Source: Candidatus Woesearchaeota archaeon (GTDB lineage: Archaea > Nanobdellota > Nanobdellia > Woesearchaeales > UBA10216). Taken from it: 64,000 nt of DNA. This document shows positions 2,953-60,430 of the stretch, piece after piece (position 1 is the stretch's first letter; each line of letters begins with the position of its first letter). The stretch spans positions 128,065 through 192,064 of the forward strand of contig JACPCV010000006.1 in NCBI GenBank assembly GCA_016184345.1, read 5' to 3'. The notes beneath the pieces are model-generated. The model was not told where the DNA came from. It saw only the letters and a list, made by a program, of their open reading frames with translations, and did not search any database. The position numbers were made by a program, and so were the translations under genes.

Positions 2953-3001
2953 AAGCTATTTATATTGAACTGCCTTTATTAAATTTGTGCTTTGGGGCAA
3001 G

Positions 3002-3406
3002 ATGACAGACACTTTTACTCAAAAACAGCGCAGTTATATCATGTCTAGGATAAAAGCCGCTAATACCGCTCCTGAATTGTTTTTAAGAAAACTACTTCGT
3101 TCTAAAGGCATAAGATACAGATTGCATTACAAGCTTATTGGCAAACCAGATGTCGTAGTGGCATCTAAGAAGCTCGCAATCTTTATTGATGGATGTTTTT
3201 GGCATGGATGCAGGAAGTGTCTTCGATTGCCAAGAACAAATAAGCCTTATTGGATAGCAAAGATAAAAAGAAATGTAAATCGCGCTAAAATAGTCAACAA
3301 GAAGCTAAAATCAGAAGGATGGAAAGTAATGCGAATTTGGGAGCATGAACTTAAGCAAAGTGCGACGCCTTCTGTTAAGAAAGTTGAGAAGTTCTTTGAA
3401 AAATAG
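3002..3406 (+). CDS. vsr: Very short patch repair endonuclease (Vsr)
   Basis: SYIMSRIKAANTAPE...GIRYRLH...GKPDVV...AIFIDGCFWHGC... matches the Vsr family. Divergent from the C5-MTase, the classic dcm-vsr pairing. ATG at 3002 is preferred over the track's GTG at 2987. Confidence 0.85.
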   Translation: MTDTFTQKQRSYIMSRIKAANTAPELFLRKLLRSKGIRYRLHYKLIGKPDVVVASKKLAIFIDGCFWHGCRKCLRLPRTNKPYWIAKIKRNVNRAKIVNKKLKSEGWKVMRIWEHELKQSATPSVKKVEKFFEK

Positions 3407-3444
3407 GCTAAAACTATTTAAACCGCCCAGTCAGCATTCTCACC

Positions 3445-5307
3445 ATGAAATACTCCGAGCTTGTTGAGCTGTACGAGAGGCTTGACAGCACGACAAAGCG
3501 GCTTGAAAAGACCTATTACCTGTCAGAATTCCTAAAAAAAACCGCTGCTGATGATATTGAGCAGGTAATACTGCTGGTTCAGGGCAGGGTTTTTCCATCT
3601 TACGATGAGCGCGAGATTGGAGTGGCGAACCAGCTAGTTGTGAAAGCTATTAATATTGCTTCCGGCACAGAAACAGAGAAGATAGAGAAAGAGTGGGCAA
3701 AGACAGGTGACCTTGGCAAAGTAGCAGAATCATTAATCAAGGGAAAAAAGCAGTCAACACTAGCTGCAACAGAGCTGACTGTAAAGAAAGTGTTTGATAA
3801 CATCAGGAAGCTTACCGAATTGACAGGCCATGGCAGCGTTGGCAGGAAGCTGCAGCTCATAGCTGAGCTCCTTAGCTCGGCAAAAGGCGCTGAGGCAAGG
3901 TACATTACCAGGACTATCCTTGGCCAGCTAAGGGTTGGCACAGGAGCAGGCATACTCCGGGATGCCATTGCCTGGGCATACTTCCCAAAAGCAGTTGAGA
4001 AGGTCTTCGTAAAATGCGGCAGCTGCCGCAGCACAGTTCCGCCTGCTGATTCCTGCGTTGAATGTAACAAGCCGTTGGAAAAAGAAGCGAGGAAAGCAGG
4101 AACAGCAGCAGAAGGGAAGGAGGAAAACACTGCAGCAAGGGACGAGTACAACACAATTCTTGACAGGATACAGCAGGCCTACGACCTTACGAACGACTTT
4201 GGTGTTGTTGCCAGGAAAGCAAAAACCGAAGGCGTCAAGGGCCTTGAAACTGTAGAGATAAGGATTGGCACCCCAATAAAGGTCATGCTTGCATTAAAAT
4301 CAGAGACAGTTGAAGAAGCACTGGAGACAGTCGGGAAACCTGCCCAGTGCGAGTACAAGTATGATGGATTCAGGTTGGAGTGCCACCGCCTTGGCGACAA
4401 AATTTGGCTTTACACCAGAAGGCTGGAAAACGTTACCCGCCAGTTCCCTGATGTGGTTGAATGCCTGAAGAAATACGTGAAGGCAGACAACTACATTCTT
4501 GATGCTGAAGCAGTTGGCTATGACCCGAAGACGCAAAAGTATGTCCCGTTCCAGAACATCTCCCAAAGAATAAAGAGGAAATATGAGATAGAAAAGATGG
4601 CGGAGGAGCTTCCTGTTGAAGTAAACGTGTTTGACATCCTGTGCTACGAAGGCAGGAACCTGGTGAGCCAGCCGTTCAGGAAAAGGCGGGAGCTGATTGA
4701 GAAGATTGTGAGGAGCGCTGAGCGGAAGATTGTCGTTTCAAAAGCTATTGTAACAGGCAATGAAGCTGAGATTGAAAAATTCTTCAAACAAGCAAAGGCA
4801 GGCGGCACTGAAGGCCTAATGATTAAGGCGCTTGACGCGCCTTACCAGCCCGGAGCCCGAGTCGGTTATATGCTGAAATTCAAAAAAGTCATGGAAAACC
4901 TTGACCTTGCAGTTGTTGCTGCTGAGTGGGGCGAAGGCAAGCGCGCAAAGTGGCTGAGCAGCTACTACCTCGCCTGCAGGGATGACAGCGGGAAGTTGCT
5001 TGAAATCGGGAAGGTTTCCACGGGCCTGAAGGAAAAGAGGGAGGAAGGTCTCAGCTTTGATGAAGTGACAGAGATGCTGAAGCCGCTTATTGTTGAGGAA
5101 ACCGGCCGCCTAGTTAAAGTCAGACCGAAAATCGTAATTGAAGTTGCCTACGAGGAAATCCAGAAGAGCCCAACATACGAGTCAGGATACGCGCTGCGCT
5201 TCCCAAGGGTAATCCGCAACAGGAGCGATGAGAAAGGCATTGGCGACATAAACACGCTGCAGGACGTTGAACGATTGTACCGGCAGCAGAAGAGGCAGAA
5301 GGCGTGA
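3445..5307 (+). CDS. lig: ATP-dependent DNA ligase (archaeal Lig1-type) with an inserted CxxC...CxxC segment in the N-terminal DNA-binding domain
   Basis: Adenylation motif CEYKYDGFR (KxDG), EGLMIK, LKFKK, and an OB-fold tail with FPRVIR. 620 aa. Confidence 0.92.
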   Translation: MKYSELVELYERLDSTTKRLEKTYYLSEFLKKTAADDIEQVILLVQGRVFPSYDEREIGVANQLVVKAINIASGTETEKIEKEWAKTGDLGKVAESLIKGKKQSTLAATELTVKKVFDNIRKLTELTGHGSVGRKLQLIAELLSSAKGAEARYITRTILGQLRVGTGAGILRDAIAWAYFPKAVEKVFVKCGSCRSTVPPADSCVECNKPLEKEARKAGTAAEGKEENTAARDEYNTILDRIQQAYDLTNDFGVVARKAKTEGVKGLETVEIRIGTPIKVMLALKSETVEEALETVGKPAQCEYKYDGFRLECHRLGDKIWLYTRRLENVTRQFPDVVECLKKYVKADNYILDAEAVGYDPKTQKYVPFQNISQRIKRKYEIEKMAEELPVEVNVFDILCYEGRNLVSQPFRKRRELIEKIVRSAERKIVVSKAIVTGNEAEIEKFFKQAKAGGTEGLMIKALDAPYQPGARVGYMLKFKKVMENLDLAVVAAEWGEGKRAKWLSSYYLACRDDSGKLLEIGKVSTGLKEKREEGLSFDEVTEMLKPLIVEETGRLVKVRPKIVIEVAYEEIQKSPTYESGYALRFPRVIRNRSDEKGIGDINTLQDVERLYRQQKRQKA

Positions 5308-5382
5308 CTTACGGATTGAAACAAGGTTTTTGCAAAAAGATTATAAAGAGAACAATCAATGCATTGACAGGAGTGACTGCGC

Positions 5383-5775
5383 ATGGCTGACATTGGAGAG
5401 GTCGTAAGAGACACAATAACCCAGAGCAAAAATGGTTTCCCCATAGAATATGCATTGGATAAAACTTCCGGCCTAAATCGGGTCATTAGGAATGCAGAAC
5501 CTCTCGCGGCACAATTAGGCAGAAGGTATGAGTGTGCTGAGAGATTCGTAATTATGCTTGATGGCGTGGAGACAGGAGTATCCTTAAGTGGCAAGGTTAA
5601 AACTGATAGCGGTGCAGAAGTATACATGGGTTGCGGGTCTAGTGTGCTTTGTACCAAAGCTTCAGGAGGGGCTATCACTAAGGATGTTCCACCCGACGTA
5701 GTGGCTGGCGCTCCTTACTGCTGCGAAAAACCCATGTTGCTAATGAATCCAAAGCCGTTGCCATCGTCAGACTAG
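5383..5775 (+). CDS. Hypothetical protein (130 aa)
   Basis: Only plausible ORF in the lig-msrB spacer. Balanced composition, but no recognisable motif and no clear SD. Confidence 0.3.
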   Translation: MADIGEVVRDTITQSKNGFPIEYALDKTSGLNRVIRNAEPLAAQLGRRYECAERFVIMLDGVETGVSLSGKVKTDSGAEVYMGCGSSVLCTKASGGAITKDVPPDVVAGAPYCCEKPMLLMNPKPLPSSD

Positions 5776-5858
5776 CTTATCCATCATTCGTTTTTATTGT
5801 TCTTTCAATGTTTTTGAGTGGGTTGATGAGGTAAGCCCTTCCAGAAGCTTCTTTTAGA

Positions 5859-6245
5859 ATGATTCCAAAAACAGAATCCGAATGGCGAAAGAAACTCACG
5901 CCAGAGCAATACCGCATCGTGCGCGAGAGAGGAACAGAGCTTCCTTTTACAGGCAGGTACGACTGGTTCTTCGACAAGGGCAGTTACCGCTGTGCGGCTT
6001 GCGGCAATGTCCTGTTCAGTTCAGAAACAAAGTACGATTCAGGCTGCGGCTGGCCCGCGTTCTTTGAAGCAAACAAGGGCAGCATCGCAACAAAAGACGA
6101 CTACTCTTTTGGCATGCACCGCATCGAAGTCATGTGCAAGCGCTGCGGCTCTCACCTCGGCCATGTCTTCAATGACGGCCCAAAGGCAAAGGGCGGGAAG
6201 AGGTACTGCATTAACTCGCTGGCGCTCAGTTTTGAGAAGAGATGA
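5859..6245 (+). CDS. msrB: Peptide-methionine (R)-S-oxide reductase MsrB
   Basis: SelR signature: two CxxC pairs ([18 protein letters not shown]) and RYCINS near the C-terminus. Confidence 0.9.
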
Positions 6246-24268: not shown

Positions 24269-24604
24269 TTAAGCCGTGGGATTAGATTTATTTTGCTTTA
24301 CCCATTCTTCAACTTCTTGCCTGTAAATTTCCAGAAATTTCATGACGGTGTTTATTGCCGTTTGCTGGTCTTTTTTCTCGCTTATTGTTATGAGGTACAG
24401 GATAAGGCACTCTTTGTAAATCAGATAGTAGATGCGATATTTTTTGTATTTCTTCTCCCTGAAAAAGTCCGAATGCAGGGGTTTTCCCTCAAACGGGTTT
24501 TCTTTTAGCTTGTCCCTTATCTTTTCAATGGCTCTTTGAACATCGGGAGAAAGCTTTGCGAACTTCCTGTCAAAAAGCTCTGTTTTCAAAATCCTATAAG
24601 CCAT
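24269..24604 (-). CDS. RelE/ParE-superfamily toxin-like protein
   Basis: FDRKFAKLSPDVQRAIEKIRDKLKENPFEGKPL...YRIYYLIYKECLILYLITISEKKDQ matches the RelE/ParE fold pattern. Confidence 0.6.
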   Translation of the reverse strand: MAYRILKTELFDRKFAKLSPDVQRAIEKIRDKLKENPFEGKPLHSDFFREKKYKKYRIYYLIYKECLILYLITISEKKDQQTAINTVMKFLEIYRQEVEEWVKQNKSNPTA

Positions 24605-24722
24605 TGGTTCTTCTGGGATGAACTTATATTTAAACCCTAGACTTGGTTTATCTCAGAAATCCGGAAAATATTCAGGAAGCCGGGGCCGCAATCTCCTCAA
24701 GCTCCCATTTCGATTCCACCCA

Positions 24723-24884
24723 TCAAGCCTTCCTAATCAGCAATTCCCCTTTCTTCTCCTTACCTTCCAGACTGTCGCCTTCCTTCCAGCCCAGGGACTT
24801 GATGAGGTTTTCCTTGATGACTATGACGTACTTGAAGTACTGTTTGTCCTCAACGCGGTGGGTTTTCTGCTTCTGCAGCTTCAT
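24723..24884 (-). CDS. Small SpoVT/AbrB-like protein (53 aa), possible antitoxin
   Basis: Below the ORF-track size cutoff. Hand translation: MKLQKQKTHRVEDKQYFKYVIVIKENLIKSLGWKEGDSLEGKEKKGELLIRKA. A TTTATAAA box lies about 25 nt upstream of the ATG. Confidence 0.5.
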   Translation of the reverse strand: MKLQKQKTHRVEDKQYFKYVIVIKENLIKSLGWKEGDSLEGKEKKGELLIRKA

Positions 24885-24955
24885 GGCTTAACTTTGCTTA
24901 TCGCCGTTTATAAAGGCATTGGTACCCAAGAGCTTATCTCTATTAGCTGGGGAGC

Positions 24956-25049
24956 CAGCTGCGGTTGGCTTGCAGCCAACTCCTTTTCCCTCCCCTACGC
25001 TTAAGCGTGGGGAGGAGAAAAGAACCTAAGCGTTACTTAGGCGCAGCTG
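24956..25049 (+). repeat. Structured four-way-junction element, copy 1 (outer 8-bp stem + three hairpins)
   Basis: CAGCTGCG / GTTGGCT-tgc-AGCCAAC / TTTTCCCTCCCC(T)ACGC-ttaa-GCGTGGGGAGGAGAAAA / CCTAAG-cgtta-CTTAGG / CGCAGCTG. Same architecture as 32719-32809, with compensatory substitutions in the stems. Confidence 0.65.
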
Positions 25050-25100
25050 ACCTGAACAACCGGCAAACTCCGTGCCTGACATACATATTGCAATAAAAGG

Positions 25101-25118
25101 TATTTGGGTACCCAAATA
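25101..25118. promoter_or_regulatory. Perfect 18-bp palindrome TATTTGGGTACCCAAATA within a cluster of three GGTACCCAA copies
   Basis: Self-complementary 18-mer. GGTACCCAA also occurs at 24921-24929 and 25135-25143. Tandem aaatactt x2 at 25114-25129. Confidence 0.5.
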
Positions 25119-25182
25119 CTTAAATACTTGCTTAGGTACCCAACTTAGTGCAAAATGCCCCTCTACACCACCTACACCCATT

Positions 25183-25348
25183 CAGAAGCCATTCAGATAA
25201 TGAAATTTCTGATTTTATATGCCATTGCATTCATTGCAGCATTTGCGTGGTTGTGGTGGAGGAGTGGCTGTGGGGGCGGGGAGGTTCGCTGAAAGAATTA
25301 CGGCAGAAATAGGAAGAACCACTGGGCATTTCGGAATGTTTGCGAAAA
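25183..25348 (+). repeat. Island intergenic repeat R1, copy a
   Basis: Aligns with 26095-26240. The 66-nt core ggttcgctgaaagaattacRgcagaaataggaagaaccactgggcatttcggaatgtttgcgaaaa differs at one position. The left part starts cagaagccattcagata in both copies. Confidence 0.8.
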
Positions 25349-25470
25349 AATCATAGGTTCCACTGGACACTGGACACGTGCCTGCGCAGGATTTATTAAT
25401 AGCCCTTCGCGGTAAATATTTAACAGACGCTGAAAAGACAACCGAAAGTTTTATAAATGAGGCATGCTTA

Positions 25471-25722
25471 ATGAAGAATGAAATGATTGTAAGGATAAGC
25501 AAGGGACAGCAGATAACAATACCCTCAGAGTACAGGGTGGAGTTTGGCTGGCAGGTTGGAAGCAAAATTGAGCTTACTAAGGAGGGGAACAAGATAGTCA
25601 TAAAGCCAATTGGAGAAGACTTACAGAAGCTCTTTGAAGAGGCCCACAATATTAGGCCTAAATTCAGGCTCACTGCAAAGCAGATGGATGAAGTGGTTGA
25701 ACGTGAAATTCTTGGACGCTAA
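25471..25722 (+). CDS. AbrB/SpoVT-family antitoxin (VapB-like)
   Basis: MKNEMIVRISKGQQITIPSEYRVEFGWQVGSKIELTKEGNKIVIKP is a swapped-hairpin AbrB motif. Overlaps the PIN gene. Confidence 0.7.
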   Translation: MKNEMIVRISKGQQITIPSEYRVEFGWQVGSKIELTKEGNKIVIKPIGEDLQKLFEEAHNIRPKFRLTAKQMDEVVEREILGR

Positions 25723-26077
25723 TGTGCTGGCTTACGCCTTTTACAGCAATGAAAACACCAATAAATGCCAAGCTGCCATTAAGGAAGGGGGCATTACCGA
25801 TACCTTCGGGCTTATTGAGGCTTTTCGCGTAATAGAGAAGGAAACTGGAAGCAGGGAAAGGGCACAGGGCGCGATTAAGGGCCTTCTTAAGTCCAGTATT
25901 GAGGTTATTGACGTTGACGTCAACGCTGTTTTTGAGGCGCTTAAGCAGGTAGGCCTGTCCAGGCTAAGCATATTTGACTCTGTGCATTACGCATGCGCAG
26001 CCATTAGCCATTGCAGCTCAATTCTTAGCTACGATAAGGATTTTGACAGGCTTGAGATTCCAAGGGAAGAACCTTAA
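25688..26077 (+). CDS. PIN-domain toxin (VapC-like)
   Basis: FLDANVLAYAF (first acidic residue), ...IFDSVHYACAA..., ILSYDKDFDRL (C-terminal Asp). ATG at 25688 overlaps the antitoxin end. Confidence 0.75.
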   Translation: MKWLNVKFLDANVLAYAFYSNENTNKCQAAIKEGGITDTFGLIEAFRVIEKETGSRERAQGAIKGLLKSSIEVIDVDVNAVFEALKQVGLSRLSIFDSVHYACAAISHCSSILSYDKDFDRLEIPREEP

Positions 26078-26094
26078 CAGCGCCCAGCCCCGTC

Positions 26095-26240
26095 CAGAAG
26101 CCATTCAGATAGCCAAATTCGTGGCCATTTACGTTGTTGCGTGGGTTGTGGTCGTGTGGTGGGTGAGGTGGAAGGGTTCGCTGAAAGAATTACAGCAGAA
26201 ATAGGAAGAACCACTGGGCATTTCGGAATGTTTGCGAAAA
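26095..26240 (+). repeat. Island intergenic repeat R1, copy b
   Basis: See 25183-25348. Same orientation; it directly precedes the second AbrB-PIN pair. Confidence 0.8.
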
Positions 26241-26321
26241 TTTTGTAGGAAGCACAAGTCGCGTGTGCACGACTGTGCCCAGTCGCAGCGGCGAGTAATA
26301 CTTTCTTACGAGGTGGTTTTT

Positions 26322-26585
26322 ATGCCGGAAGTGACGAAAATGACTACGAAAGGCCAGGTTGTAATTCCTTCAGAAATCAGGAAAGAGCTTGGGTTGGGCG
26401 AGGGAAGCCAGATGGTAGTCAGTAAGCTGGGGGAGCTTGTCCTGCTTAAGAAGATAGAAATTCCCGACCCAAAAAAGGAGCTGGATAGGCTCACAAAGTG
26501 GGGCAGCGCTTTTGCGAAAAAAACCGGGATAAAAAGTGAGGCTGATGTAGTTGCCAGAATACACAAGTTCAGGAAAGGCGCTTAA
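26322..26585 (+). CDS. AbrB/MazE-family antitoxin
   Basis: GAGGTGG SD then ATG at 26322. MPEVTKMTTKGQVVIPSEIRKELGLGEGSQMVVSKLGELVLLKK. Confidence 0.7.
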   Translation: MPEVTKMTTKGQVVIPSEIRKELGLGEGSQMVVSKLGELVLLKKIEIPDPKKELDRLTKWGSAFAKKTGIKSEADVVARIHKFRKGA

Positions 26586-26994
26586 CGTAGTTTTTGACAC
26601 GAACATATTCGTTTCCGCCATCTTCTGGCAGAAAGGGAACCCTCACAGGCTCTTTGAATTGGCAATTGACCAAAAGATTAAGGCTTTTACTTCTGTTGAA
26701 ATCCTGGGCGAGCTTCTCCGTGTTCTCAGGAGGGATTTTCCAGGGCAGGGGCAGGAGGAAACCATCCTTGATTACCTCTCCCTCATTTTGAAACGCATAA
26801 AGATTGTTGAAGCAAAGGCCAAGCTTGACGTGGTTAAGAACGATCCTGATGACAACAAGATCCTCGAATGCGCTGTGGCTTGCGGAGCAGATTACATAGT
26901 CACAGGCGACAAGCACCTGCTTGACCTAAAGGAATATGAGCGGATAAAGATAATAACGGCGGCGACACTGGTTGGGATTATGCGGCCCAGCTAA
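26551..26994 (+). CDS. PIN-domain toxin (PIN_3/TIGR00305-like)
   Basis: VVFDTNIFVSAIFWQKGNPHRL..., DPDDNKILECAVACGADYIVTGDKHLL. TTG start overlapping the antitoxin by 35 nt. Confidence 0.75.
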   Translation: MPEYTSSGKALNVVFDTNIFVSAIFWQKGNPHRLFELAIDQKIKAFTSVEILGELLRVLRRDFPGQGQEETILDYLSLILKRIKIVEAKAKLDVVKNDPDDNKILECAVACGADYIVTGDKHLLDLKEYERIKIITAATLVGIMRPS

Positions 26995-27055: not shown

Positions 27056-28189
27056 TTGTCTAATCAGATTTGTGAATGGAAAGAGCTTCCTAAAAACATG
27101 AATAATAAGCTACATACAATCTGTAGCTATATGGCTATGTTTCCACCTTCACTCCCCCATTATTTTATTCAGAAATACTCTAATGAAGGTGATGTGGTTT
27201 TGGACCCCTACTCGGGAAGGGGTACGACTGTTCTTGAAGCTTGCTTGATGAGTAGGATTGGAATAGGAAACGATAAGAATATTCTTGCACATCTTTTGAC
27301 CAAAGCAAAGAGTGATATTCCTGCGAAAGGCCGTATACTTTCGAGGATAAATCAATTGGAAAAAGATTTCAATCCATCACTAATCTCCCTTAACAGTATA
27401 GACCCCAACGTGAGAATGATTTTCAGTGATACTACCCTCTCGCAGATGGCATTCCTGAAAGACAAATTGAATTGGAGAAGAAGTAATGTTGACTCATTTA
27501 TTGCCGCTATGGTCCTGGGCATTATGCATGGAAATTCCGAAGGTTATCTATCCGTCAGTATGCCGAACACATTCTCAATGGCACCAAATTATGTCAGAAA
27601 GTATATTCACGAGCACAATTTGCAGAGACCTATTCGGGACACATTTGCATTGCTCCGAAGAAAGTTGGAACGCTGCTATCAAAAAAGTTCGGTCAGTGGA
27701 AAAGCTTACAGTCAGGATGCAAGGAAGATAACCAGAATAAAGAATTCCTCTGTAGACCTCATTGTTACTTCCCCACCTTACACAAGGGTCATAAGGTATG
27801 GGCAATTCAACTGGATTAGATTATGGTTCCTTGGCAAGTCAGGCAAGGAAATTGACAAGGATTTGTTTTTCTCGCAGTCAATTCCGAAATACTCGGAGTT
27901 CATGGTTCAATCACTGCAAGAGATGAAAAGGGTGTTGAAACCTGGCGGCAAGGCAGTTCTGATTATAGGTGATGTAAAAGACAGAACAAGTGAAAAAATT
28001 TTCAATCTTGCTCAAACCATTTGGGATGACTGCGCCAAATCTGTAGGTTTCAAATTAATGCAGCCCATAATTGAGGACGCAATTAGAGACGACACCAAAG
28101 TTTCAAAAATCTGGGGAGAAACAAAGGGAAATGCTACAAAAAAAGATAGGATTTTGATTTTAGAAAAAACTGATTCATCTACCTCTTAA
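27056..28189 (+). CDS. DNA amino-methyltransferase (N6-adenine or N4-cytosine), motif I upstream of motif IV
   Basis: YMAMFPPSLPHYFIQKYSNEGDVVLDPYSGRGTTVLEA (motif I region), DLIVTSPPY (motif IV), RVLKPGGKAVLIIGD. About 190 aa lie between motifs I and IV (presumed target-recognition region). TTG at 27056 behind GAGGAGG is preferred (alternative ATG at 27098). Confidence 0.8.
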   Translation: MSNQICEWKELPKNMNNKLHTICSYMAMFPPSLPHYFIQKYSNEGDVVLDPYSGRGTTVLEACLMSRIGIGNDKNILAHLLTKAKSDIPAKGRILSRINQLEKDFNPSLISLNSIDPNVRMIFSDTTLSQMAFLKDKLNWRRSNVDSFIAAMVLGIMHGNSEGYLSVSMPNTFSMAPNYVRKYIHEHNLQRPIRDTFALLRRKLERCYQKSSVSGKAYSQDARKITRIKNSSVDLIVTSPPYTRVIRYGQFNWIRLWFLGKSGKEIDKDLFFSQSIPKYSEFMVQSLQEMKRVLKPGGKAVLIIGDVKDRTSEKIFNLAQTIWDDCAKSVGFKLMQPIIEDAIRDDTKVSKIWGETKGNATKKDRILILEKTDSSTS

Positions 28190-28843
28190 CAAAATTTTTA
28201 ACTCCTTATCGAATCTTTTCTTGAGGGTATTGTGAAATTCAGAGCAAAGTTCCAAATCTTTTAAATCAAACAAAATCTTCCCTCTTTGTTGAATTACTCT
28301 CTCCATATTACTTTCTTCAAGGAACCTTTTTGCTTCTGATAAAGTTTGCTCTATATGTTTTAATCTTTCATTAACAATTTTTGGCGGGCTACCAGCGGCT
28401 ATGCTCCAAAACCATCCCGCATCTCTAAATTGAGTGGGTTTTTCTTTATTCTTAAGCCATTCTTTAAAGATTGGATGGTCTATGATTTTTATTATTGCTT
28501 CTTGCAGAGCTCTCGTAGCTTTTAGCTGTAGTTCTTCACTATGTGGTTTCAATCTTAGAGCGGTGGTAAGTCCAGCTTCACTTATTGTATATGCCCTCTC
28601 GCCAACCTTTTTAAGTAAACCTTTAGCCACGAGACCATCTTTACCATCCAGTTTAGTAAAAACGATATTTGAATCAGGAAATTTACTCTCGTAGCCTCTC
28701 AATCCGAATGCAGAATTATCATCTTCCCAAGCTTTGACTATGACTTCTTCAGCTGTGAATTTCGTAGTTACACTTCCCTCACTTAACGACAATGCAGCTA
28801 TAAGAACTCTTTCATTTAATGTAAAATTCTGACTATCGTTCAT
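28175..28843 (-). CDS. Hypothetical protein (222 aa), N-terminal wHTH-like; last gene of the four-gene operon
   Basis: ATG overlaps the upstream gene end by 11 nt. The 3' end overlaps the convergent MTase 3' end by 15 nt. ...LDGKDGLVAKGLLKKVGERAYTISEAG is wing-like. No catalytic motif seen. Confidence 0.6.
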   Translation of the reverse strand: MNDSQNFTLNERVLIAALSLSEGSVTTKFTAEEVIVKAWEDDNSAFGLRGYESKFPDSNIVFTKLDGKDGLVAKGLLKKVGERAYTISEAGLTTALRLKPHSEELQLKATRALQEAIIKIIDHPIFKEWLKNKEKPTQFRDAGWFWSIAAGSPPKIVNERLKHIEQTLSEAKRFLEESNMERVIQQRGKILFDLKDLELCSEFHNTLKKRFDKELKILLRGR

Positions 28844-31184
28844 TTTCAGTCATACCTCCTGCACTTTTTATCCAAGGTGCTAATTTATCCCACATTTTAG
28901 AAGTTAAATCTACGTAGAACCTCTCGTAATTGGCTTTGTGAGATGACCATAATTCAGGTTTCTCATTATCACCCTTCCTTATATATTCGTGGCTCATCCA
29001 TACTTGAATCATCATTTCTACAAATAACTTTGCATGAAAGAGACGCCAGGCAGTTAAATCAATTTTTCGAAGTTCATAGGCGAAATTAGCGTCTTTGCTT
29101 TGCATATTAAGCCACCAGATATTGTTTTGCACATCAATAACTTCCTGCCATAATGCGGGTTGTTCAGAGTTTCCTTGCCTAATTTCTCCAGTAATAGGGT
29201 CTTTGTCTTTGCCCGTCATCAGGAGCTGTGGGAACCCACTACCGCCACTTTCATTAATAACGCCTTTTATTACTTCGACTTCTGTTGGAATTGTATTCCA
29301 CAAACCGTCATTTATATCCACTCCAGCGTATATGTTCGTTTTGCCAATAACATTCCCAAATATGAACCCTTTTGGAGTTATTTTTACAAGTTCGGAATTA
29401 TCGGAATCATGTCTCCAATTCAAAAGAACGTCAATCGATGCTATTCCCTCGTAATCAATCACTTTCGCGGTTATCTGTTTAGATTGTCCCAAAGGAACTT
29501 GTATTATTCTTGGAATCAAATAAATTTCTTTTATGTTGACAACTTTTACTTCCAGAAGAGGGCTACTTATATTACTGCCTTCAATATATGCGTATGCTGT
29601 GCATTTTCCTTTTGATAAAGCTTCCAAATCACCTTCAGGGGTCACATTCAGAATTTTACAGTCATTACTTTTCCAATGGATGGTGGTTATTACTGGTTTA
29701 TCATTAAAATCTTTAGCAACCGCCTTCACTATTGATACGATGTTTGTTTTGAAACCCGTGGCACATTTTATCTGGTAAGTCGACAGATTTATTCTGTCAA
29801 CAATCTTCCCCCAATCAATTTGGTGCCCTTTTTTTTTCTTTTTACCACCAGCTTCATTTCCAAGAATCGATGACAAATCAATTTGACCTTCTTCAGGCAT
29901 AAATTCGTTTTTTATTTCGTTCAGGAACTTGTTATCCTTGTGAATGTCATCAAGAATATTTTCATCCTGTTCCATCATTCTTGTTTCATTTATTTTCCGC
30001 GCCAACGCTCTGATGTTTTCAGCCAAGAAGTCATCTAAAGCCATCATTAAGTCACCGTCAGTAGGTCTTAATCTTCCAGTGTTTACAAAGTCCGTAAGAG
30101 CATCCAGCTCAGCACTTGCGTAAATGAAATGCGAACCTGGAACAGTCGGAGCGACTTCTGATATATCCTTTTGCCCCACAGTTTCGAATTTCGTTTTATA
30201 GGTTACCTTCCATCTGGGTTTCAATCTTACAAAATTTGACTCCATACTATCTTTTGAAGTAAACAGGACTATCTTCCCTTGATTATATTTTCCGTTTTTT
30301 GTGGTGGAGACCCCTTTATTGTTCTCAGGATTTTTTAAGGAAGCTGGTATTTCATACTCAAATGGACCTTCAAACCCAAGATATGGGGGTATCTGCTCTA
30401 ATTGAAGAGGATTTCCATCAAATAATAATTTTCCATTGTGGATAGCATAGAATTTAATTTGTTGAACTGGCAAAGTTGCCTGTGATTTTTTGAGCACTTT
30501 TTTTATAAAAAAATTAATGTCAGGTTTTTCTTCCCAATTAAGTGGTTCAATACCTTGAACAAGCGTAAATGCTTTTCTATCATTTAACGCCTTTCTTATT
30601 TCAGAAGGTAAGTCACTTAAGCCAAAATCGTAGTCCTTTAACTGTTCAACCAACATATCTTCCCATGAGCTAATCAAGCAATCTTTAGCTTTTGTTGTAT
30701 CTGGTATGTATCCGGGAATGCCTCTTTCAAGCGTTTTTATATCGCCCACAAATCCTTTACAATTTAACTTATTATCTTTTACACCAAAAATGTAAGCAGG
30801 TCCCTTGAAAAGCCTATACATGTAAGATTTCCCACCATTTCCTTGAGTTATCTCATCAAATTTGTCCGAACCTCTTCTTGAAGCATCTGGGTCTTGCCAT
30901 ACGCCCCATCTCTCAACGTCTTCATTGGTTGCACCACCCACATCCAAAATTCCTAATCTCGCTGGGGCATTACCTTCCTTATCCTTGAATAACAGTGCCG
31001 CTACCCTATGTTCAGGTTTTACATTGGCTCTATCTTGTTGATAAGCTGCTCTCACATTTTTCATCCATTCTGGGAATCCATCTTCGTGCTGATTTAACCA
31101 TCTTGTAACAGCTGCCAAAGTTCCTTCCTCGTGAAACTTTATTTGCTTATCCCTTTCAATCTGATTCTTTTGGTTCATTTTCAC
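28833..31184 (-). CDS. Large protein (about 782 aa): N-terminal GHKL-like (Bergerat-fold) ATPase motifs, central region, two Big_2-like Ig domains, Trp-rich helical C-terminus
   Basis: FPEWMKNVRAAY (N-box-like ExxxN), LGILDVGGATNED (DxGxG-like), ITQGNGGKSYMY (GxxGxG-like). IQVPLGQSKQITAKVIDYEG...LLNWRHDSDNSELVKITPKGFIFGNVIGKTNIYAGV (Big_2-like). GTG at 31184 overlaps the upstream stop (ATGTGA); the ATG at 31178 behind GGGAGA is an alternative start. Confidence 0.6.
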   Translation of the reverse strand: MKMNQKNQIERDKQIKFHEEGTLAAVTRWLNQHEDGFPEWMKNVRAAYQQDRANVKPEHRVAALLFKDKEGNAPARLGILDVGGATNEDVERWGVWQDPDASRRGSDKFDEITQGNGGKSYMYRLFKGPAYIFGVKDNKLNCKGFVGDIKTLERGIPGYIPDTTKAKDCLISSWEDMLVEQLKDYDFGLSDLPSEIRKALNDRKAFTLVQGIEPLNWEEKPDINFFIKKVLKKSQATLPVQQIKFYAIHNGKLLFDGNPLQLEQIPPYLGFEGPFEYEIPASLKNPENNKGVSTTKNGKYNQGKIVLFTSKDSMESNFVRLKPRWKVTYKTKFETVGQKDISEVAPTVPGSHFIYASAELDALTDFVNTGRLRPTDGDLMMALDDFLAENIRALARKINETRMMEQDENILDDIHKDNKFLNEIKNEFMPEEGQIDLSSILGNEAGGKKKKKGHQIDWGKIVDRINLSTYQIKCATGFKTNIVSIVKAVAKDFNDKPVITTIHWKSNDCKILNVTPEGDLEALSKGKCTAYAYIEGSNISSPLLEVKVVNIKEIYLIPRIIQVPLGQSKQITAKVIDYEGIASIDVLLNWRHDSDNSELVKITPKGFIFGNVIGKTNIYAGVDINDGLWNTIPTEVEVIKGVINESGGSGFPQLLMTGKDKDPITGEIRQGNSEQPALWQEVIDVQNNIWWLNMQSKDANFAYELRKIDLTAWRLFHAKLFVEMMIQVWMSHEYIRKGDNEKPELWSSHKANYERFYVDLTSKMWDKLAPWIKSAGGMTENER

Positions 31185-32119
31185 ATTCTCCCAATTATGC
31201 TATAATCATTTCTTTCGTTTTTTACTAGCCCCAGCTCCCTTAGCAGAGAGATTTTTCCGGAACTAAATGTGGTTGCAAGGTTGCTGAGCTGTTTCTTAAA
31301 TTCAACAGGATCATTTGTCTTCGAGCTTACTTTTTTCACATAAGCAACAAATTTAGGATTATTCTCGAACCACTTCCACAAATCATCTTTACCATTATTG
31401 CCTTTCTTGATAAAAGAATAAACGTCAGAGAGAAGAGTATATTCCTTGAAACCCTGTCTGTCTATACTTTTGAGGTAATTCAAAAGCCAGATTTTTTCCT
31501 CAGGCGTTAATACTTGATTCTTGTCGAGGTTATCAAAAATATTATTTTTTAATCTTGCAAATTCCAAACCTTGGCTGGTTGGCCTCACCAATATCTTATC
31601 CCAATCTTCATTCCATATGTTCTTTTTTTGAGCTCCCTTTTCAAGATGAACTTCAAAAAGCCCAAGATTACGGAAACCATCAAGAAAATGAGTCACTAAC
31701 CTTCTGATTGAAAAGTTGTCGTCTAAATCCTTTGGAAACCCTTTCAATTTGGATAATTCATATCTTTTTATGATCTTTTTTGACTCACCAATTAGTTTAG
31801 TCAGAGGTACATATTCTACCTTTTGGGTATAAAGAAGATTTGCTGAGATTCGTAATAAAGCCTTTCCAGAAAAGAAATCATTAAACATACCCCACAGCCC
31901 AACAGACCTCGTCAGATCATCTAGAACAATTTGTCCGGAAGGGACTTTAATTTGAGGAGGGATAGTTAAATAGTTCAGCTCTTTAGATACTGATTGTGAA
32001 TTGATTCCGTTTGGACCAAAACCGCAAAGAGGACAACCATCAGAGTTCTTATTAAGGTCAAACTCCGAACCACATTTCCCACACTTTACGCGATTTTCTC
32101 CTGTTGCGAACAAAGGCAT
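31181..32119 (-). CDS. Zinc-ribbon protein (312 aa) with helical/wHTH-like remainder, hypothetical
   Basis: VKCGKCGSEFDLNKNSDGCPLCGF at the N-terminus. C-terminal ...GKISLLRELGLVKNERNDYSII is wHTH-like. AGGTAGGTG SD, 8 nt after the upstream stop. Confidence 0.6.
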   Translation of the reverse strand: MPLFATGENRVKCGKCGSEFDLNKNSDGCPLCGFGPNGINSQSVSKELNYLTIPPQIKVPSGQIVLDDLTRSVGLWGMFNDFFSGKALLRISANLLYTQKVEYVPLTKLIGESKKIIKRYELSKLKGFPKDLDDNFSIRRLVTHFLDGFRNLGLFEVHLEKGAQKKNIWNEDWDKILVRPTSQGLEFARLKNNIFDNLDKNQVLTPEEKIWLLNYLKSIDRQGFKEYTLLSDVYSFIKKGNNGKDDLWKWFENNPKFVAYVKKVSSKTNDPVEFKKQLSNLATTFSSGKISLLRELGLVKNERNDYSIIGRM

Positions 32120-32126
32120 AACACAC

Positions 32127-32339
32127 CTACCTGATTGAAGTTACGGTCATTCTAATTCTGCCGTCCTTTCCTTTTTTGTGGTCATAAATAGCGAGGTCAA
32201 AACTCGGGCTGCCACTTATCGCATTCAAGATAGACTGAGCTAGGCTTAGGCCTTCATCTTTACTAATAACTAAATTCACAGATTTGGCGCCCCTGTAAAC
32301 CTTAGTTAATTTCACAAATCCGTAATATTTCCGTTTCAT
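32127..32339 (-). CDS. Small protein (70 aa), hypothetical; first gene of the operon
   Basis: GAGGGGG SD 8 nt upstream of the ATG. MKRKYYGFVKLTKVYRGAKSVNLVISKDEGLSLAQSILNAI.... No motif recognised. Confidence 0.5.
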   Translation of the reverse strand: MKRKYYGFVKLTKVYRGAKSVNLVISKDEGLSLAQSILNAISGSPSFDLAIYDHKKGKDGRIRMTVTSIR

Positions 32340-32381
32340 AAGTCAAACCCCCTCTTATTTATTTATTATAAGTTGACTTAT
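32338..32381. promoter_or_regulatory. Perfect 9-bp inverted repeat ATAAGTCAA...TTGACTTAT enclosing the SD and touching the start codon of the operon's first gene
   Basis: Arms at 32338-32346 and 32373-32381 with a 26-nt AT-rich spacer containing GAGGGGG (minus sense). A TATA-like ctttaatatataaag lies at 32391-32405. Confidence 0.5.
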
Positions 32382-33000: not shown

Positions 33001-33501
33001 TTACCCTTGAACAATGCCCTTGGTGTCTTTAATCATGTCCTGGCAAATGCCAAGAAGTTCCTCCACTTTCTGCTTATCAATCTCTATGATGGGCGTGTAC
33101 TGGTACTTCTCACGCATAGGAATCACCTTATCTTCACCCATATCAGCACTGATGGCGTCCACATACCTTTTGAAGTGCTGGCTGATTTTGCCTTCTTCAA
33201 TAAGGCTCTCAACAGCGGCCAGCGTACAGTCCTGGTTCCTGCTCTCATAGCCAAACTTAGTTATAATAGCCAAGCAGCAATGGTACGTCACGTAAAAGCC
33301 AATATTGATCGCCCAATCATAAAAACCATGCTTCCTATTCAGCAGGAAAACCTCAAGATTATGCTCCGCCTTAACAATATATTCCTTAGCTAAAGCATCA
33401 TCCGGCTTTACTTTAACCAAGCCGCGATGCTTTGCGCCAGATGCCAATTGCTTCTTTGCCTGGTCCAAACACCATCGCACCTTATGCTCTGCTTTGGACA
33501 T
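33001..33501 (-). CDS. HEPN-domain protein
   Basis: Four-helix HEPN pattern (AKEYIVKAEHNLEVF...GFYVTYHCCLAIITKFGYESRNQ...). Overlaps the upstream wHTH-NTase gene by 20 nt. Confidence 0.72.
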   Translation of the reverse strand: MSKAEHKVRWCLDQAKKQLASGAKHRGLVKVKPDDALAKEYIVKAEHNLEVFLLNRKHGFYDWAINIGFYVTYHCCLAIITKFGYESRNQDCTLAAVESLIEEGKISQHFKRYVDAISADMGEDKVIPMREKYQYTPIIEIDKQKVEELLGICQDMIKDTKGIVQG

Positions 33502-34087
33502 TCTTCAGCATCCCCACAAAAAGTTCCTGGCCATGAACCACAACGCATGTTCTTACCATATCAACTAACGGCTTGTCTTTCTCCCTTAGCTTCTTTTCAA
33601 ACTCCCCCTCAGTAAGATATAACGGGTGAATTCTCAGGCGATTCTTCCGGTTCATCTCAGCCACGCCGCTTTGCAGCCTGCCATAATCCTTTGCATCCTT
33701 GAGTATGAAACACGCGTCCACATCACCAGCACGCCTCTCTTTTGTCAGGATTGAACCAAACAAAAACATGGCCTTAGTATCCGGAATGAATGACCGCAAA
33801 TCATAAATCCAGCCTTTCACGAAGCTTGACAAGCTGCTATGTTCAAGAAAAATCAGCTCCAGAAGCTTCAGCACATACTCATTATCAAGGTTTGGCTTGT
33901 AAAAAATGGCGTTGCCCATCTTCTCGCTAACCAGAAGATTCTTCTCATTCAGGCTTCTCAACAGTTTCAGGCTGCCAACGCCACTAATCCCAAGCTTTTC
34001 CTTAATATTGTAAGAGTTGTAGCTAGTCAAAAAGTCGGTAAAGATAACCTTCAAAGCTCTCTTACCATTCTCACTAACCTCAACCAT
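33482..34087 (-). CDS. wHTH-fused minimal nucleotidyltransferase (MNT-type)
   Basis: N-terminal wHTH (NIKEKLGISGVGSLKLLRSLNEKNLLV) and NTase motif LFGSILTKERRAGDVDACFIL. Confidence 0.75.
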   Translation of the reverse strand: MVEVSENGKRALKVIFTDFLTSYNSYNIKEKLGISGVGSLKLLRSLNEKNLLVSEKMGNAIFYKPNLDNEYVLKLLELIFLEHSSLSSFVKGWIYDLRSFIPDTKAMFLFGSILTKERRAGDVDACFILKDAKDYGRLQSGVAEMNRKNRLRIHPLYLTEGEFEKKLREKDKPLVDMVRTCVVVHGQELFVGMLKNVQSRA

Positions 34088-34233
34088 CTTACCATAACCT
34101 CAAGTTAGAGTACTATAACTTTAAGTTATATATAAGCTTTTCTATTCCCGCAAACCGCATTGGCTTTTTCGGTAGCTGCTTCGGCCACTTTTCTTCTTTA
34201 ACGATTTTTGCCAGCGTATGCGCCACTGGACAC

Positions 34234-34271
34234 CCCGCCCCTCTCCGCTGCCGCCCCGGAGCTTGCCTTGG
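34234..34271 (+). repeat. Direct repeat R2, copy b
   Basis: See 32874-32911. Confidence 0.7.
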
Positions 34272-34322
34272 CATCTGAGCCGAAAACCACGCTTACCGTT
34301 TCTTTGATGACTGCGCTATTTA

Positions 34323-35110
34323 TTAGTCCCCCTTCTTTTTGTGCCCGAGCCTTTTTTGCCCTTCCGGCTTTTCAAGGAAGTTGCCACTGGAGACAACGCT
34401 TTTCCCGAGCTTTTGCTCAATGTCCTTTCGTGTTGAGCCGGCAATGTCCCCGCCATCCTTTGCGTCTTTTTTCATGGTTGGAAACTCTTTGGAATCGCGC
34501 TCCCTTGTGAACCGTGTGGTCGTTGCTTCCCCAAGCATTGTCAGGATAAGCTCCAGGTCATCCATGTGGTCTCTGAGGTTTTCTTGCTTATCTCGTTGGT
34601 GAGAATAGCATATTCTCTATCTTCCCCAACGCCCCGCTTCTTCCATTCATCCGTAAGCTCATCCCTTACCGCTATGCCTCTGGCTCGCTTCTCAATCCAC
34701 TCGTTTGAGTAGCCTTTGGCTGCGTAAATCTCCTTCATTCGCTTTTGTGCCAGTTCAGGATTTTCTATCTCCTTAACGCGGTCGTAGCCCACTTTTGCCA
34801 GCCAAAGCTTGAAAGGTTCGGCTTTTGGGGAAGGTATTGACTGAATTATCCTGAAGGCGCCTTCTGTGTTGATGCAGTTCATTTTCTGTTTTCCTCCAGC
34901 GGTATCAACTGGAAGGGTATGTACAATTTGTACCCACCCTTGAGCTAGAATTGGATCCCTTTGCTTGACTTTTTGAATATACTGCTTAGGGTCATTAGAA
35001 TCAGTAAGGGCGGCTACAATATCCTCCACCACAAACCACCATTCATCATTGAACCAAGTTCTTCGAATGTTCTTGCCTTGAAATACCACCATTGCATTGT
35101 CAGTGTCCAT
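34323..35110 (-). pseudogene. Bro-N / DinD-like (DNA-damage-inducible protein D family) gene, split by an internal deletion or frameshift near 34565-34585
   Basis: The 189-aa ORF has a Bro-N N-terminus (VFQGKNIRRTWFNDEWWFVVEDIVAALTDS) and ends ...ILTNEISKKTSETTWMTWSLS*. The +1 frame reads QENLRDHMDDLELILTMLGEATTT..., continuing as the 80-aa ORF 34323-34565. Confidence 0.6.
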
Positions 35111-35548
35111 TTTGCCTGCTTAGTATGTATTTGCTTATAAATCCTCGCCGCCCATTTGTCCAGTGTCCAGTGCTTCGAAAGTTCGCCTAAATTTTTAGGC
35201 GACCCACCGTTTACTTTACAGCCCAGCATAATCCGCTTTAGGCAGATTCGGTTCATTCCTGTTTTCAAACAAGTCCAGCCATATCGAAGTGTCCAGATAA
35301 TAGCTGTTCATTTCATCTTTGAAGTGATGGTTCTTAATAAGCTTTTTGGCTGTTTGTCGTCGGAGAATTTACGGATTTAATGGAAAGTTTTCAAAAAATT
35401 GCCGTTTTAGCGGCAAGTTTCCGGATAATGCCGAAAATTAAACGCTAATGCCGTAATTCTTGCGGCATTTCTGGGGCAAGGCTTAATTTGCCTGCCAATT
35501 CAGCTGTTTCCATGGAAAACTATAAATATAGGGTATGGTGTACCATAT

Positions 35549-35836
35549 ATGGCTGAGAAGATAATTGACCACAAGTATGCTGAAGGGGAGGAAGTCCTTC
35601 AGATTCGCATATTCAAGGTAGAGGTGTCTGAGAAAAACCCGGAAGGCTATTCATATTCGCTTGTTTACATTAAAAACGGCAAAAGGCTTGTCGGCTATGA
35701 CAACTTTGAAGGCCACTCAAAGGGAGGCAACAACCATCATAAGCACGTAAAAGAAATGATAAGCGAGTACTGTTTCGTTGACATTTGGCAGCTTATGGAA
35801 GACTTCAACCGCGATGTTGAAAGGGTGAAAAAATGA
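35549..35836 (+). CDS. DUF6516/TumE-like toxin-like protein
   Basis: YSYSLVYIKNGKRLVGYDNFEGHSKGGNNHHKH matches the pattern recalled for this family. 4-nt ATGA overlap with the next gene. Confidence 0.55.
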   Translation: MAEKIIDHKYAEGEEVLQIRIFKVEVSEKNPEGYSYSLVYIKNGKRLVGYDNFEGHSKGGNNHHKHVKEMISEYCFVDIWQLMEDFNRDVERVKK

Positions 35837-36207
35837 AGGCAAGTAATATAAAGGTAACAATCAAAAGCCGGGCGCAGGTTTTGCAGGAGTTTGGCGAAGC
35901 TTTTGAGAATTTGAAGAAAGGAGAGCCTGTGCTTTACCGGAACGAGTTGTCGTTTGGCAGCCTTGAAGCGCTCAGAAAGGTTCTGACAGAAAAGAGAACA
36001 GAGCTTCTTAAAGCCATAAAGGAAAAATCTCCCGAATCTGTATACGGGCTTGCAAAGCTTGTCAGCAGGGACCTGAAGAGCGTCAGCACTGACCTTAAGA
36101 TTCTTAAGAGCCTTGGGTTGGTGTCACTTGCGAAATCAAATGAGGGCAGGTTCAGGGTCAGGCCTGAAGTTCTCTTTGACAAGCTGAGCATTGAAATTGC
36201 GGTATAA
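35833..36207 (+). CDS. wHTH DNA-binding protein (HVO_A0114/TumA-like antitoxin-like)
   Basis: ...RKVLTEKRTELLKAIKEKSPESVYGLAKLVSRDLKSVSTDLKILKSLGLVSL is wHTH. This is the usual partner of DUF6516 genes. Confidence 0.55.
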   Translation: MKASNIKVTIKSRAQVLQEFGEAFENLKKGEPVLYRNELSFGSLEALRKVLTEKRTELLKAIKEKSPESVYGLAKLVSRDLKSVSTDLKILKSLGLVSLAKSNEGRFRVRPEVLFDKLSIEIAV

Positions 36208-59350: not shown

Positions 59351-59456
59351 GCCCAACACCTCCAAATATGACGAAATCATACGACATGTGAGCTTATATT
59401 TAAAGATTGTTGTTGCGAGGAATAGATAACTGAAAAAGAAGTTGGTGGTTGGCTGT

Positions 59457-60368: not shown

Positions 60369-60430
60369 TTTAGAAGCAGCGGCTAATCAGTGCCTATTTA
60401 AAATTAGTGCTAAAAAAGAATAACCAAAAA

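Follow-up and report, generated by a model that had tools for sequence, protein, structure and literature searches.

A candidate restriction-modification-like immunity module with a MORC/Hsp90-like ATPase in a Woesearchaeota archaeon

Here we describe a block of genes at positions 27056-32381 of a 64,000-nt stretch of the genome of a Candidatus Woesearchaeota archaeon (assembly GCA_016184345.1, contig JACPCV010000006.1, positions 128,065 to 192,064 of the forward strand), to which we refer as the window. Four open reading frames (ORFs) lie on the minus strand and encode proteins of 70, 312, 783 and 222 amino acids (aa), the last three of which are called A, B and C below. A DNA methyltransferase (MTase) is encoded convergently on the plus strand. 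We suggest, by analogy with restriction-modification (R-M) systems, that the block is a horizontally acquired R-M-like conflict, or immunity, module with a B-C ATPase core, and give this reading a probability of about 0.5. Judged from its motifs and its modelled fold, B is an ATPase of the GHKL+S5 class, similar to MORC, SMCHD1 and Hsp90. The conserved system is B plus C, while the adaptor upstream of them is exchangeable and the MTase optional. We class the block as a nuclease-less variant of the MORC/paraMORC systems predicted earlier to be associated with R-M.

Gene block and its proteins

The first-pass annotation of the window had proposed four tightly coupled minus-strand ORFs of 70, 312, about 782 and 222 aa, and both the ORF list and the reading of the junctions confirm them. 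The elements of the block are as follows.

32402-32395, minus strand: TATA-like box TTTATATA, some 55 nt ahead of the first ORF, read directly from the sequence; likely the operon promoter in this archaeal host
32339-32127, minus strand: 70-aa ORF, first gene of the operon, with a strong Shine-Dalgarno sequence and a 7-nt spacing to A
32119-31181, minus strand: A, 312 aa (ORF list)
31184-28833, minus strand: B, 783 aa from a GTG start, or 781 aa from an ATG at 31178 (NCBI record)
28843-28175, minus strand: C, 222 aa (ORF list)
27056-28189, plus strand: convergent N6/N4 amino-DNA MTase with motif I DPYSGRGTT followed by TSPPY; its ORF is open from 26972

The Shine-Dalgarno sequence ahead of the 70-aa ORF reads AAGAGGGGG. 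The TAG of this ORF lies inside AGGTAGGTG and the ATG of A follows 7 nt on, which corrects the gap of 8 nt given before. The stop codon of A (TGA, 31183-31181) overlaps the GTG of B by 4 nt, as had been proposed, but the alternative ATG of B, 6 nt downstream of the GTG, lies 2 nt after that stop. The overlaps of 11 nt between B and C and of 15 nt between C and the convergent MTase (28175-28189) were both read as originally described. The low GC content is confirmed as well, with fractions of 0.36-0.40 over 27-32 kb against 0.45-0.52 in both flanks. At 100% identity B corresponds to HYU40_05055, A to HYU40_05060 and C to HYU40_05050, all annotated as ‘hypothetical protein’.

The AlphaFold2 model of B, built on 100 homologues, has a mean confidence (pLDDT) of 87.6 and a predicted template modelling (pTM) score of 0.78. 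Three regions are distinguished in it.

Residues 1-430 (29895-31184, minus strand): GHKL (Bergerat) ATPase, S5-type transducer and coiled coil (helices 378-428), from AlphaFold2 and Foldseek
Residues ~460-640 (29265-29807, minus strand): two tandem Big_2 Ig-like domains, from profile search against PDB and Foldseek
Residues 650-783 (28836-29237, minus strand): conserved helical C-terminal domain with a WW-L-N motif, AlphaFold2 helices 697-773

A Lys-rich disordered linker (residues 433-451) precedes the Ig domains. The initial view of B as a GHKL-like plus Ig-like protein is borne out by structure comparison. In Foldseek searches against PDB, residues 1 to ~430 superpose on the ATPase and transducer modules of MORC4, MORC3, MORC2, SMCHD1 and the Hsp90 family (E 5e-9 to ~1e-6, 415-500 aligned columns, probability 1.00); MORC4 is the best match (E 5.2e-9, 415 columns), and TRAP1 and GRP94 are also matched. 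The Ig region matches teneurin-like Big_2 repeats at 1.6e-15 in a sequence profile search against PDB, and LigA (1.8e-12) and SbsC in Foldseek; Pfam Big_2 is detected in homologues of B. The sequence identity of B to eukaryotic MORC2/3/4 and SMCHD1 is only ~11-12%.

The GHKL motifs of B are E39/K42/N43 (motif I, ExxxN), D81/G84 (motif II, DxGxG), G115-N-G-G-K119 (motif III, GxxGxG-like) and T207 (motif IV). The ATP-site residues are kept in at least 90% of 40 sequences of lineage 1 and in at least 6 of 7 sequences of lineage 2, and the two lineages share only 22-26% identity. Hence, since the Bergerat-fold motifs are conserved over such a distance, B is almost certainly a catalytically active ATPase. 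The S5-fold transducer follows the GHKL domain in the Foldseek superposition, as is typical of the GHKL+S5 subgroup, and R371, conserved across both lineages, would be the basic finger residue of S5. The S5 motif of MORC sensu stricto, GhXhhpXXRhl, is not recognisable by eye around G303-K339; MORC is nonetheless the top structural GHKL match. With regard to MORC sensu stricto or any particular paraMORC family, we therefore propose for B a likeness in modelled structure only. Pfam HATPase_c_3 does not match B at E<=1.

In the C-terminal domain only P652, P663, P676, W691, N693 and S696 are conserved across both lineages. There is no acidic residue among them, which makes a metal nuclease of the MutL type less likely and a structural function, probably in dimerisation or partner binding, more so. 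No structural match was reported for the last ~130 residues in Foldseek against PDB. More than 246 full-length homologues of B, 42-78% identical, occur in archaea and many bacterial phyla, including Acidobacteriota, Planctomycetota, Actinomycetota, Verrucomicrobiota and Pseudomonadota. In the BFVD collection two giant-virus proteins, A0A1V0SGC9 (Hokovirus) and A0A5K0UA26 (Yasminevirus), match the B model over its full length, beyond the Ig region alone (885-916 columns, TM score 0.30-0.36, E 7e-13 and 5e-9); they may be MORC/Hsp90-like ATPases of similar overall layout.

C is modelled with a pLDDT of 90.7 as an N-terminal winged helix followed by a helical domain, in line with its first description as a winged-helix-turn-helix-like protein. 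Its best Foldseek match, the N-terminal region of MukF (E 0.025, TM score ~0.3), is not significant. The conserved positions of C-like proteins are structural, such as an invariant Pro in an [FY]P[DR] turn. A begins with a four-Cys zinc ribbon (CxxC...CxxC), as the first-pass annotation had it, and is matched by Zn-ribbon models; the rest of it appears by eye to be helical or winged-helix-like. When B, A and C were compared as profiles with the sequences in PDB, only Big_2 repeats were matched by B and eL37-like Zn ribbons by A, and a member-by-member Pfam census of the A and C families gave nothing beyond Zn-ribbon noise in A. About 110 homologues of A were found, and those with a source name belong to Pacearchaeota/Woesearchaeota.

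The identification of the convergent gene as an amino-DNA MTase holds, and the enzyme is Type II-like (PF01555, 6.9e-23; PADLOC MTase_II, 9.3e-42). Its homologues align from residue 29-35 of the ORF opening at 26972, which makes the start at 27056 (377 aa) plausible. Both the TSPPY motif and the closest relatives of solved structure, which are N4-cytosine MTases and TTHA0409, point to N4-cytosine as the probable target of the enzyme. With the BREX PglX model only the generic MTase domain scores (1.3e-13).

The B-C pair and its exchangeable partners

One genome per species was scanned for B in 185,579 species, and 40 B loci were found. ORF maps come from a crude longest-ORF caller, clusters were formed by single-linkage BLAST, and many of the metagenome contigs are short. 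C lies immediately after B in 34 of 34 genome loci that have an intact B and downstream sequence, three of which have B at only 22-24% identity. Together with metagenome loci, the closest relative of the block (L126), a plasmid of Ensifer described below and three further look-ups, the pair occurs in ~48 distinct places, distributed sporadically over archaea and seven or more bacterial phyla.

The five-gene unit proposed at first does not withstand this comparison. The 70-aa gene recurs in one other place only, A is replaced in bacteria, and the MTase is missing from most bacterial B-C loci, and it is for these reasons that we regard B plus C as the conserved system. What stands of the expected co-occurrence is the constant B-C pair, together with the layout of A-B-C and convergent MTase; the latter recurs in 11 independent loci, which is more than chance. 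In all 11 of these intact A-B-C loci the MTase is convergent and 58-70% identical (45% in L072), and its 3′ overlap is conserved, with 15 nt in the window and 18 nt in L126. Among the ~35 bacterial B-C loci, a census with four MTase query families places an amino-MTase next to the pair only in L041, L042 and the Ensifer plasmid, possibly also in L043 and L045; three further bacterial B-C loci have no DNA MTase within 10 kb.

The gene upstream of B is A in archaea and belongs to two other families in bacteria. The first contains a coiled coil and a HARE-HTH-like domain, which is present in 4/4 proteins tested and is the top Pfam match in three of them, below the gathering threshold in all. The second is unannotated and ~200 aa long. 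Some B-C loci have neither family and only an unrelated VapBC pair or an integrase at this position. No significant relationship between the A family and the bacterial upstream families (fam1a, fam1b, VapC, VapB) was obtained with hhalign, so that the upstream gene is truly replaced. Moreover, A and the MTase are 57-64% identical across loci where B and C fall to 22-29%, which indicates that the modules were recombined.

Two variants of the layout were seen. In the acidobacterial loci L133 (13296-16380), L010 and L034, B-C is followed by two conserved unannotated genes of ~620 and 410 aa (clusters c34 and c71), with PilZ/SPOR proteins upstream. In L098 and L100 (8966-9421 and downstream) an intact A is followed by a B fragment of ~150-167 aa and then by three tandem paralogous ORFs of 294-323 aa (c15); this locus is degenerate or invaded. 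Proteins of 380-440 aa that appeared B-like upstream in Acidobacteria were in fact tyrosine integrases or PilZ/SPOR proteins that the single-linkage clustering had grouped together.

The A family was also searched in metagenomes, with ORFs mapped around the matches. In every one of the 80 metagenome loci A is immediately followed by B or by another large-protein/C-like module, in which a C-like protein may or may not be present, and at least six large-protein clusters besides B are preceded by it. The partners following A are listed below.

B: 18 loci
c5, 750-920 aa: 15 loci
c6 with c7: 12 loci
C-like protein, then c9: 8 loci
c12: 6 loci
C-like protein with c20: 5 loci
c122-c123-c124: 2 loci

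The GHKL proteins c9 and c20, with which C also pairs, pass the Pfam HATPase_c_3 threshold, while c5 (HATPase_c_3) and c12 (HATPase_c) score below; in c6 GHKL-like motifs are seen by eye only. The cluster c122 (L113/L116) matches the PADLOC candidate PDC-M33A at 5.6e-25. No significant hhalign relationship exists between B and the other A-linked large-protein clusters, or between C and c7, c123 or c124. A shared C-terminal motif, glimpsed by eye, has no hhalign support either and is not claimed here.

An N6/N4 or C5 DNA MTase is present within five ORFs in 23/35 A-type loci of all partner types with enough sequence. The linked enzyme is a C5 cytosine MTase (PF00145, 1.5e-67) at the A-c6-c7 loci L050, L060, L093, L105, L107, L109, L115, L124 and L125, and likewise at the A-c122-c123-c124 loci L113 and L116 and the A-c12 loci L058 and L096. 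These C5 MTases often adjoin an HhH-GPD/EndoIII-like glycosylase with a 4-Cys cluster (by eye, not by Pfam), which looks like a mismatch-repair companion of the MTase. We find A best viewed as an adaptor common to a group of large ATPase modules in archaea, tying them to DNA methylation.

The 70-aa protein has a genuine family of small relatives but does not count among the conserved parts of the system. A phmmer search of 1.84 billion representatives gives ~28 full-length relatives of 61-88 aa with the consensus RrYyG...K.YrG.KSiNLv...fDLaiyd...mTVTs. The only other place with a relative upstream of an A gene is L128/L129, two assemblies of one locus, where the ORF (735-947 in L128) is translationally coupled to A; no homologue was found at the other 125 loci by a hidden Markov model search of six-frame translations. 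In L132 a relative (85-309) immediately precedes an N6_N4 MTase and has ParB and MazE genes next to it. The protein may be a controller-type regulator of R-M-like modules. The same query matches repeated segments in giant proteins of 4000-4900 aa (P0268, 4861 aa; P0270, 4195 aa; P0287; P0294; phmmer E 2e-16 to 2e-14); such a repeat domain may exist on its own in the 70-aa protein.

The cassette is horizontally mobile cargo, as follows from the integrases, recombinases, insertion sequence (IS) elements and plasmid copy at its loci together with the low GC content and the toxin-antitoxin (TA) island around the block. In acidobacterial loci a tyrosine integrase is found upstream of B-C (L009, L016, L021, L027) and a large serine recombinase (Resolvase, Recombinase and Zn_ribbon_recom domains) directly downstream of C in the same orientation (L013, L016, L021, L038, L012, L134). 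This arrangement suggests a small integrative element in Acidobacteriota with B-C as cargo. IS110 or IS200-type transposases are neighbours of other B-C loci. A distant copy of 75, 800 and 229 aa, detected with the B profile at 5.8e-78 and the C profile at 1.3e-30, lies at 59223-62548 on the conjugative plasmid NZ_CP118613.1 (L127) of Ensifer adhaerens CTYH.Ch1, which is in culture. Some 1-5 kb upstream of this cassette (1734-5915) a 417-aa DNA MTase is followed, convergent on the other strand, by a 410-aa hypothetical protein and a 583-aa AAA ATPase, and an ORF 50% identical to this MTase adjoins B-C in L042. These upstream genes may extend the B-C module or form another defence-like one.

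In the window the block is flanked on both sides by the TA island (24269-26994 and 33001-36207), which had been recognised from the sequence and is borne out by Pfam: two MazE/PIN pairs, a sub-threshold ParE-like match, HEPN, TumE with a helix-turn-helix (HTH) partner, and Bro-N.

24269-24604: ParE-like, sub-threshold match (Pfam)
25378-26077: MazE/PIN pair (Pfam)
26232-26994: MazE/PIN_3 pair (Pfam)
33001-33501: HEPN (Pfam)
33482-34087: nucleotidyltransferase-like ORF (by reading), overlapping the HEPN ORF; sole Pfam match a weak DUF6932
34541-35110, minus strand: Bro-N domain protein inside the island (PF02498, 1.4e-16)
35549-35836: TumE (Pfam)
35833-36207: HVO_A0114-type HTH, partner of TumE (Pfam)

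The Bro-N family is one that we take to be typical of viruses and proviruses, and the protein may be a remnant of a mobile element.

Proposed mechanism and its alternatives

The absence of nuclease, helicase and PglZ hallmark domains, claimed at the outset, is upheld: the 70-, 312-, 783- and 222-aa proteins have no match in Pfam, NCBIfam, PHROGs or PADLOC (PADLOC-DB v2.0.0) beyond Zn-ribbon noise. Apart from the MTase, the five proteins match no PADLOC system, and at E<=1 nothing was obtained for the components of BREX (PglZ, BrxC) or DISARM (DrmA/B/C helicase, DUF1998, PLD). Neither REase nor HsdR nor Res models of classical Type I-III R-M match the proteins of the window. A superfamily II (SFII) helicase or a nuclease of restriction endonuclease (RE) fold, HNH, HKD or TIR type was found neither in the window nor among the recurring neighbour clusters of related loci. 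There is no SMC protein in the window as would be expected of MukBEF or Wadjet, and the similarity of C to the kleisin MukF is, as said, below significance. Distant B homologues have no PADLOC match either; only the sister cluster c122 does.

The AlphaFold2 and Foldseek hunt for a hidden nuclease, carried out on B and C, gave none; B came out as MORC-like and C as a winged-helix protein. A nuclease concealed in the C-terminal domain of B or in C is unlikely, since no acidic or His residue is conserved there across deep lineages. A match of mREase_II to A (E 0.0068 over 35 residues) is treated as noise. We rejected the idea that A is a Type II REase acting alone, because it invariably comes with a large-protein or C-like gene and several of its loci lack an MTase. 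We also rejected the CapK/CapS regulators, which are small anti-sigma-type kinases with STAS partners upstream of immune operons (PMC13373217).

With these observations we suggest the following scheme for the action of the module.

Step 1: B would form dimers, constitutively via its C-terminal domain, and its heads would close on ATP binding, giving an ATP-gated clamp. This step is proposed because, to our knowledge, all characterised GHKL+S5 ATPases (MutL, Hsp90, MORC) dimerise at their heads on ATP binding and constitutively at their C-termini.

Step 2: The winged-helix proteins C and A would load or target the clamp on DNA. The MTase, probably N4-cytosine-specific, would mark the host DNA and thereby keep A from sending the clamp to it. 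In the bacterial version a different adaptor, of the HARE-HTH type or other, would give target discrimination without a linked MTase.

Step 3: Unmarked incoming DNA would be trapped or compacted, with its replication or transcription blocked, or would be handed to a host nuclease. With no nuclease encoded in the block, the effect itself would be non-nucleolytic, as in BREX and in eukaryotic MORC silencing.

We put this nuclease-free clamp mechanism forward tentatively and with low confidence. Several points weigh against it and against the immunity reading as a whole. For all members the defence function is read from context, architecture and analogy, and the clamp or silencing step from analogy alone. 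A DNA MTase is missing within 8-10 kb of most bacterial B-C loci, and methylation therefore cannot be intrinsic to the core mechanism. The bacterial neighbourhoods often consist of housekeeping genes and are not dense defence islands, which leaves the defence assignment to architecture and analogy. No effector of any kind, nuclease and helicase included, was detected in any subunit by Pfam, NCBIfam, PHROGs or PADLOC, and the conserved residues of C and of the C-terminal domain of B are not catalytic-looking. A, finally, may contain a cryptic nuclease.

The same lack of a nuclease, together with the weak MukF-like similarity of C, would suit a module for mobile-element maintenance or chromatin organisation, in which the clamp with a kleisin-like partner condenses, partitions or silences its own element, or acts as a xenogeneic silencer. 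The integrases and serine recombinases around the acidobacterial copies, the IS elements and the conjugative plasmid of Ensifer are as expected for it. However, the cassette has only two to four genes, chromosomal copies surrounded by housekeeping genes occur as well, genes for partition or replication are not regular neighbours, the similarity to MukF lacks significance, and linkage to an MTase and a TA island is typical of defence cargo. We consider this alternative unlikely, though the least so of the four.

It is less probable that the block consists of two unrelated neighbours, with a methylation-independent A-B-C and an MTase that is an orphan or part of an unrecognised Type II R-M pair. 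The location of the MTase on the opposite strand and its absence from most bacterial B-C loci speak for such a separation. Yet 11/11 intact A-B-C loci carry the same MTase family with the same convergent overlap, even at 22-29% identity of B and C, and in other A-linked families the MTases are of the C5 class instead.

An abortive-infection or sensor system appears slightly more improbable still. Here the Ig domains of B would recognise a viral protein, ATP-driven remodelling would activate a toxic B or C, and the MTase would be an accessory. Big_2 Ig domains commonly serve in protein recognition and are not usual in cytoplasmic ATPases, abortive infection is the mode of action of many defence systems that have no nuclease, and the core is independent of the MTase in bacteria. 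But neither a toxin-like, membrane, NADase nor nuclease domain was detected, and all partners are DNA-binding winged-helix or Zn-ribbon proteins, pointing to DNA as the substrate.

A virion or cell-surface structural operon, suggested by the Big_2 domains and by the many phage tail and capsid Big_2 proteins that Foldseek returns from viral structures, can be dismissed as highly implausible: these matches cover only the ~180-residue Ig region of B, the N-terminal 430 residues form an ATPase, no signal peptide is seen by eye at the N-terminus, and B has no relatives in 2.9 million IMG/VR viral contigs or 50,697 phage genomes (INPHARED).

Relation to known systems and significance

The block is not BREX, DISARM, Wadjet, Shedu or any PADLOC v2 system. 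Thus, the first impression that it has no named counterpart stands for catalogued defence systems; it does not stand for predicted ones, as MORC and paraMORC1-5 GHKL ATPases were predicted in R-M systems in 2008 (Iyer, Abhiman & Aravind, PMC2292703). The block is in this sense less unprecedented than first claimed. It shares with the MORC/paraMORC systems the GHKL+S5 module, the sporadic lateral distribution in bacteria and archaea and a family-specific C-terminal extension. Their neighbouring cytosine or adenine MTase is matched in the window and in the 11 intact A-B-C loci, but not in most bacterial loci, and their mismatch-repair enzymes next to C5 MTases are reminiscent of the sister A-linked loci. 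However, those systems are characterised by SFII helicases and nucleases (RE-fold, HNH, HKD or TIR), and the block has neither, fused or adjacent. B also differs by its two inserted Ig domains, the winged-helix partner C and the exchangeable adaptor A, and, unlike the MORC/paraMORC concept, it is undetected by Pfam HATPase_c_3 and all PADLOC models.

Eukaryotic MORC2/3/4 and SMCHD1, the best structural matches of residues 1-430 (Foldseek E 5e-9 to 2e-7, 415-500 columns), have the same layout, with a coiled coil and then domains for recognising protein or DNA behind the ATPase head, and their action on DNA depends on its methylation state. B lacks their CW, chromo or SMC-hinge domains, and the eukaryotic proteins are not encoded together with partner genes. 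BREX resembles the block in combining an MTase, an ATPase and accessory proteins without an obvious restriction nuclease, possibly with a non-cleaving block, but the present module is far smaller and has no PglZ, BrxC, BrxL or BrxA/B. Through c122 a part of the A-linked supergroup is already flagged as a defence candidate in PADLOC (PDC-M33); A, B and C of the window match no PDC-M33 model, and PDC-M33 is itself unvalidated. In two proteins validated in anti-phage defence, VcSduA, a GHKL-Shedu with the ATPase fused to a DUF4263 nuclease (PMC12137116), and SLFN-pAgo-GHKL, where GHKL is fused to Schlafen and Argonaute (bioRxiv 10.64898/2026.05.29.728809), GHKL serves as a regulatory or clamp module, as we propose for B; the effector is fused there, and the block has none. 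Literature searches for paraMORC, GHKL with defence, HARE-HTH with GHKL, and PDC-M33 gave no named equivalent.

In the literature searched, none of the prokaryotic MORC/paraMORC ATPases, whose role in R-M was predicted 18 years ago, has been characterised, except for GHKL fused to known effectors. The B family is invisible to Pfam, PADLOC, NCBIfam and PHROGs despite its hundreds of full-length members. A minimal two- to four-gene, nuclease-less system allows a direct test of a MORC-type clamp on DNA and of its steering by methylation, and the plasmid copy in the cultured Ensifer adhaerens makes such experiments feasible. The block would add to the short list of defence candidates of DPANN archaea and exposes A as a modular adaptor that links ATPase families to MTases.

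Last, a test of this kind bears on the origin of eukaryotic MORC/SMCHD1 silencing. By analogy, and as tentatively as for the clamp mechanism itself, we suggest that B-C may be a prokaryotic prototype of MORC-type silencing, that is, a nuclease-free immunity in which an ATP-gated MORC-like clamp, put on DNA by swappable winged-helix or Zn-ribbon adaptors, traps and inactivates foreign DNA. If this is true, self would be spared by the linked MTase in archaea or by the specificity of the adaptor in bacteria, and A would define a supergroup of at least seven ATPase families, mainly archaeal.

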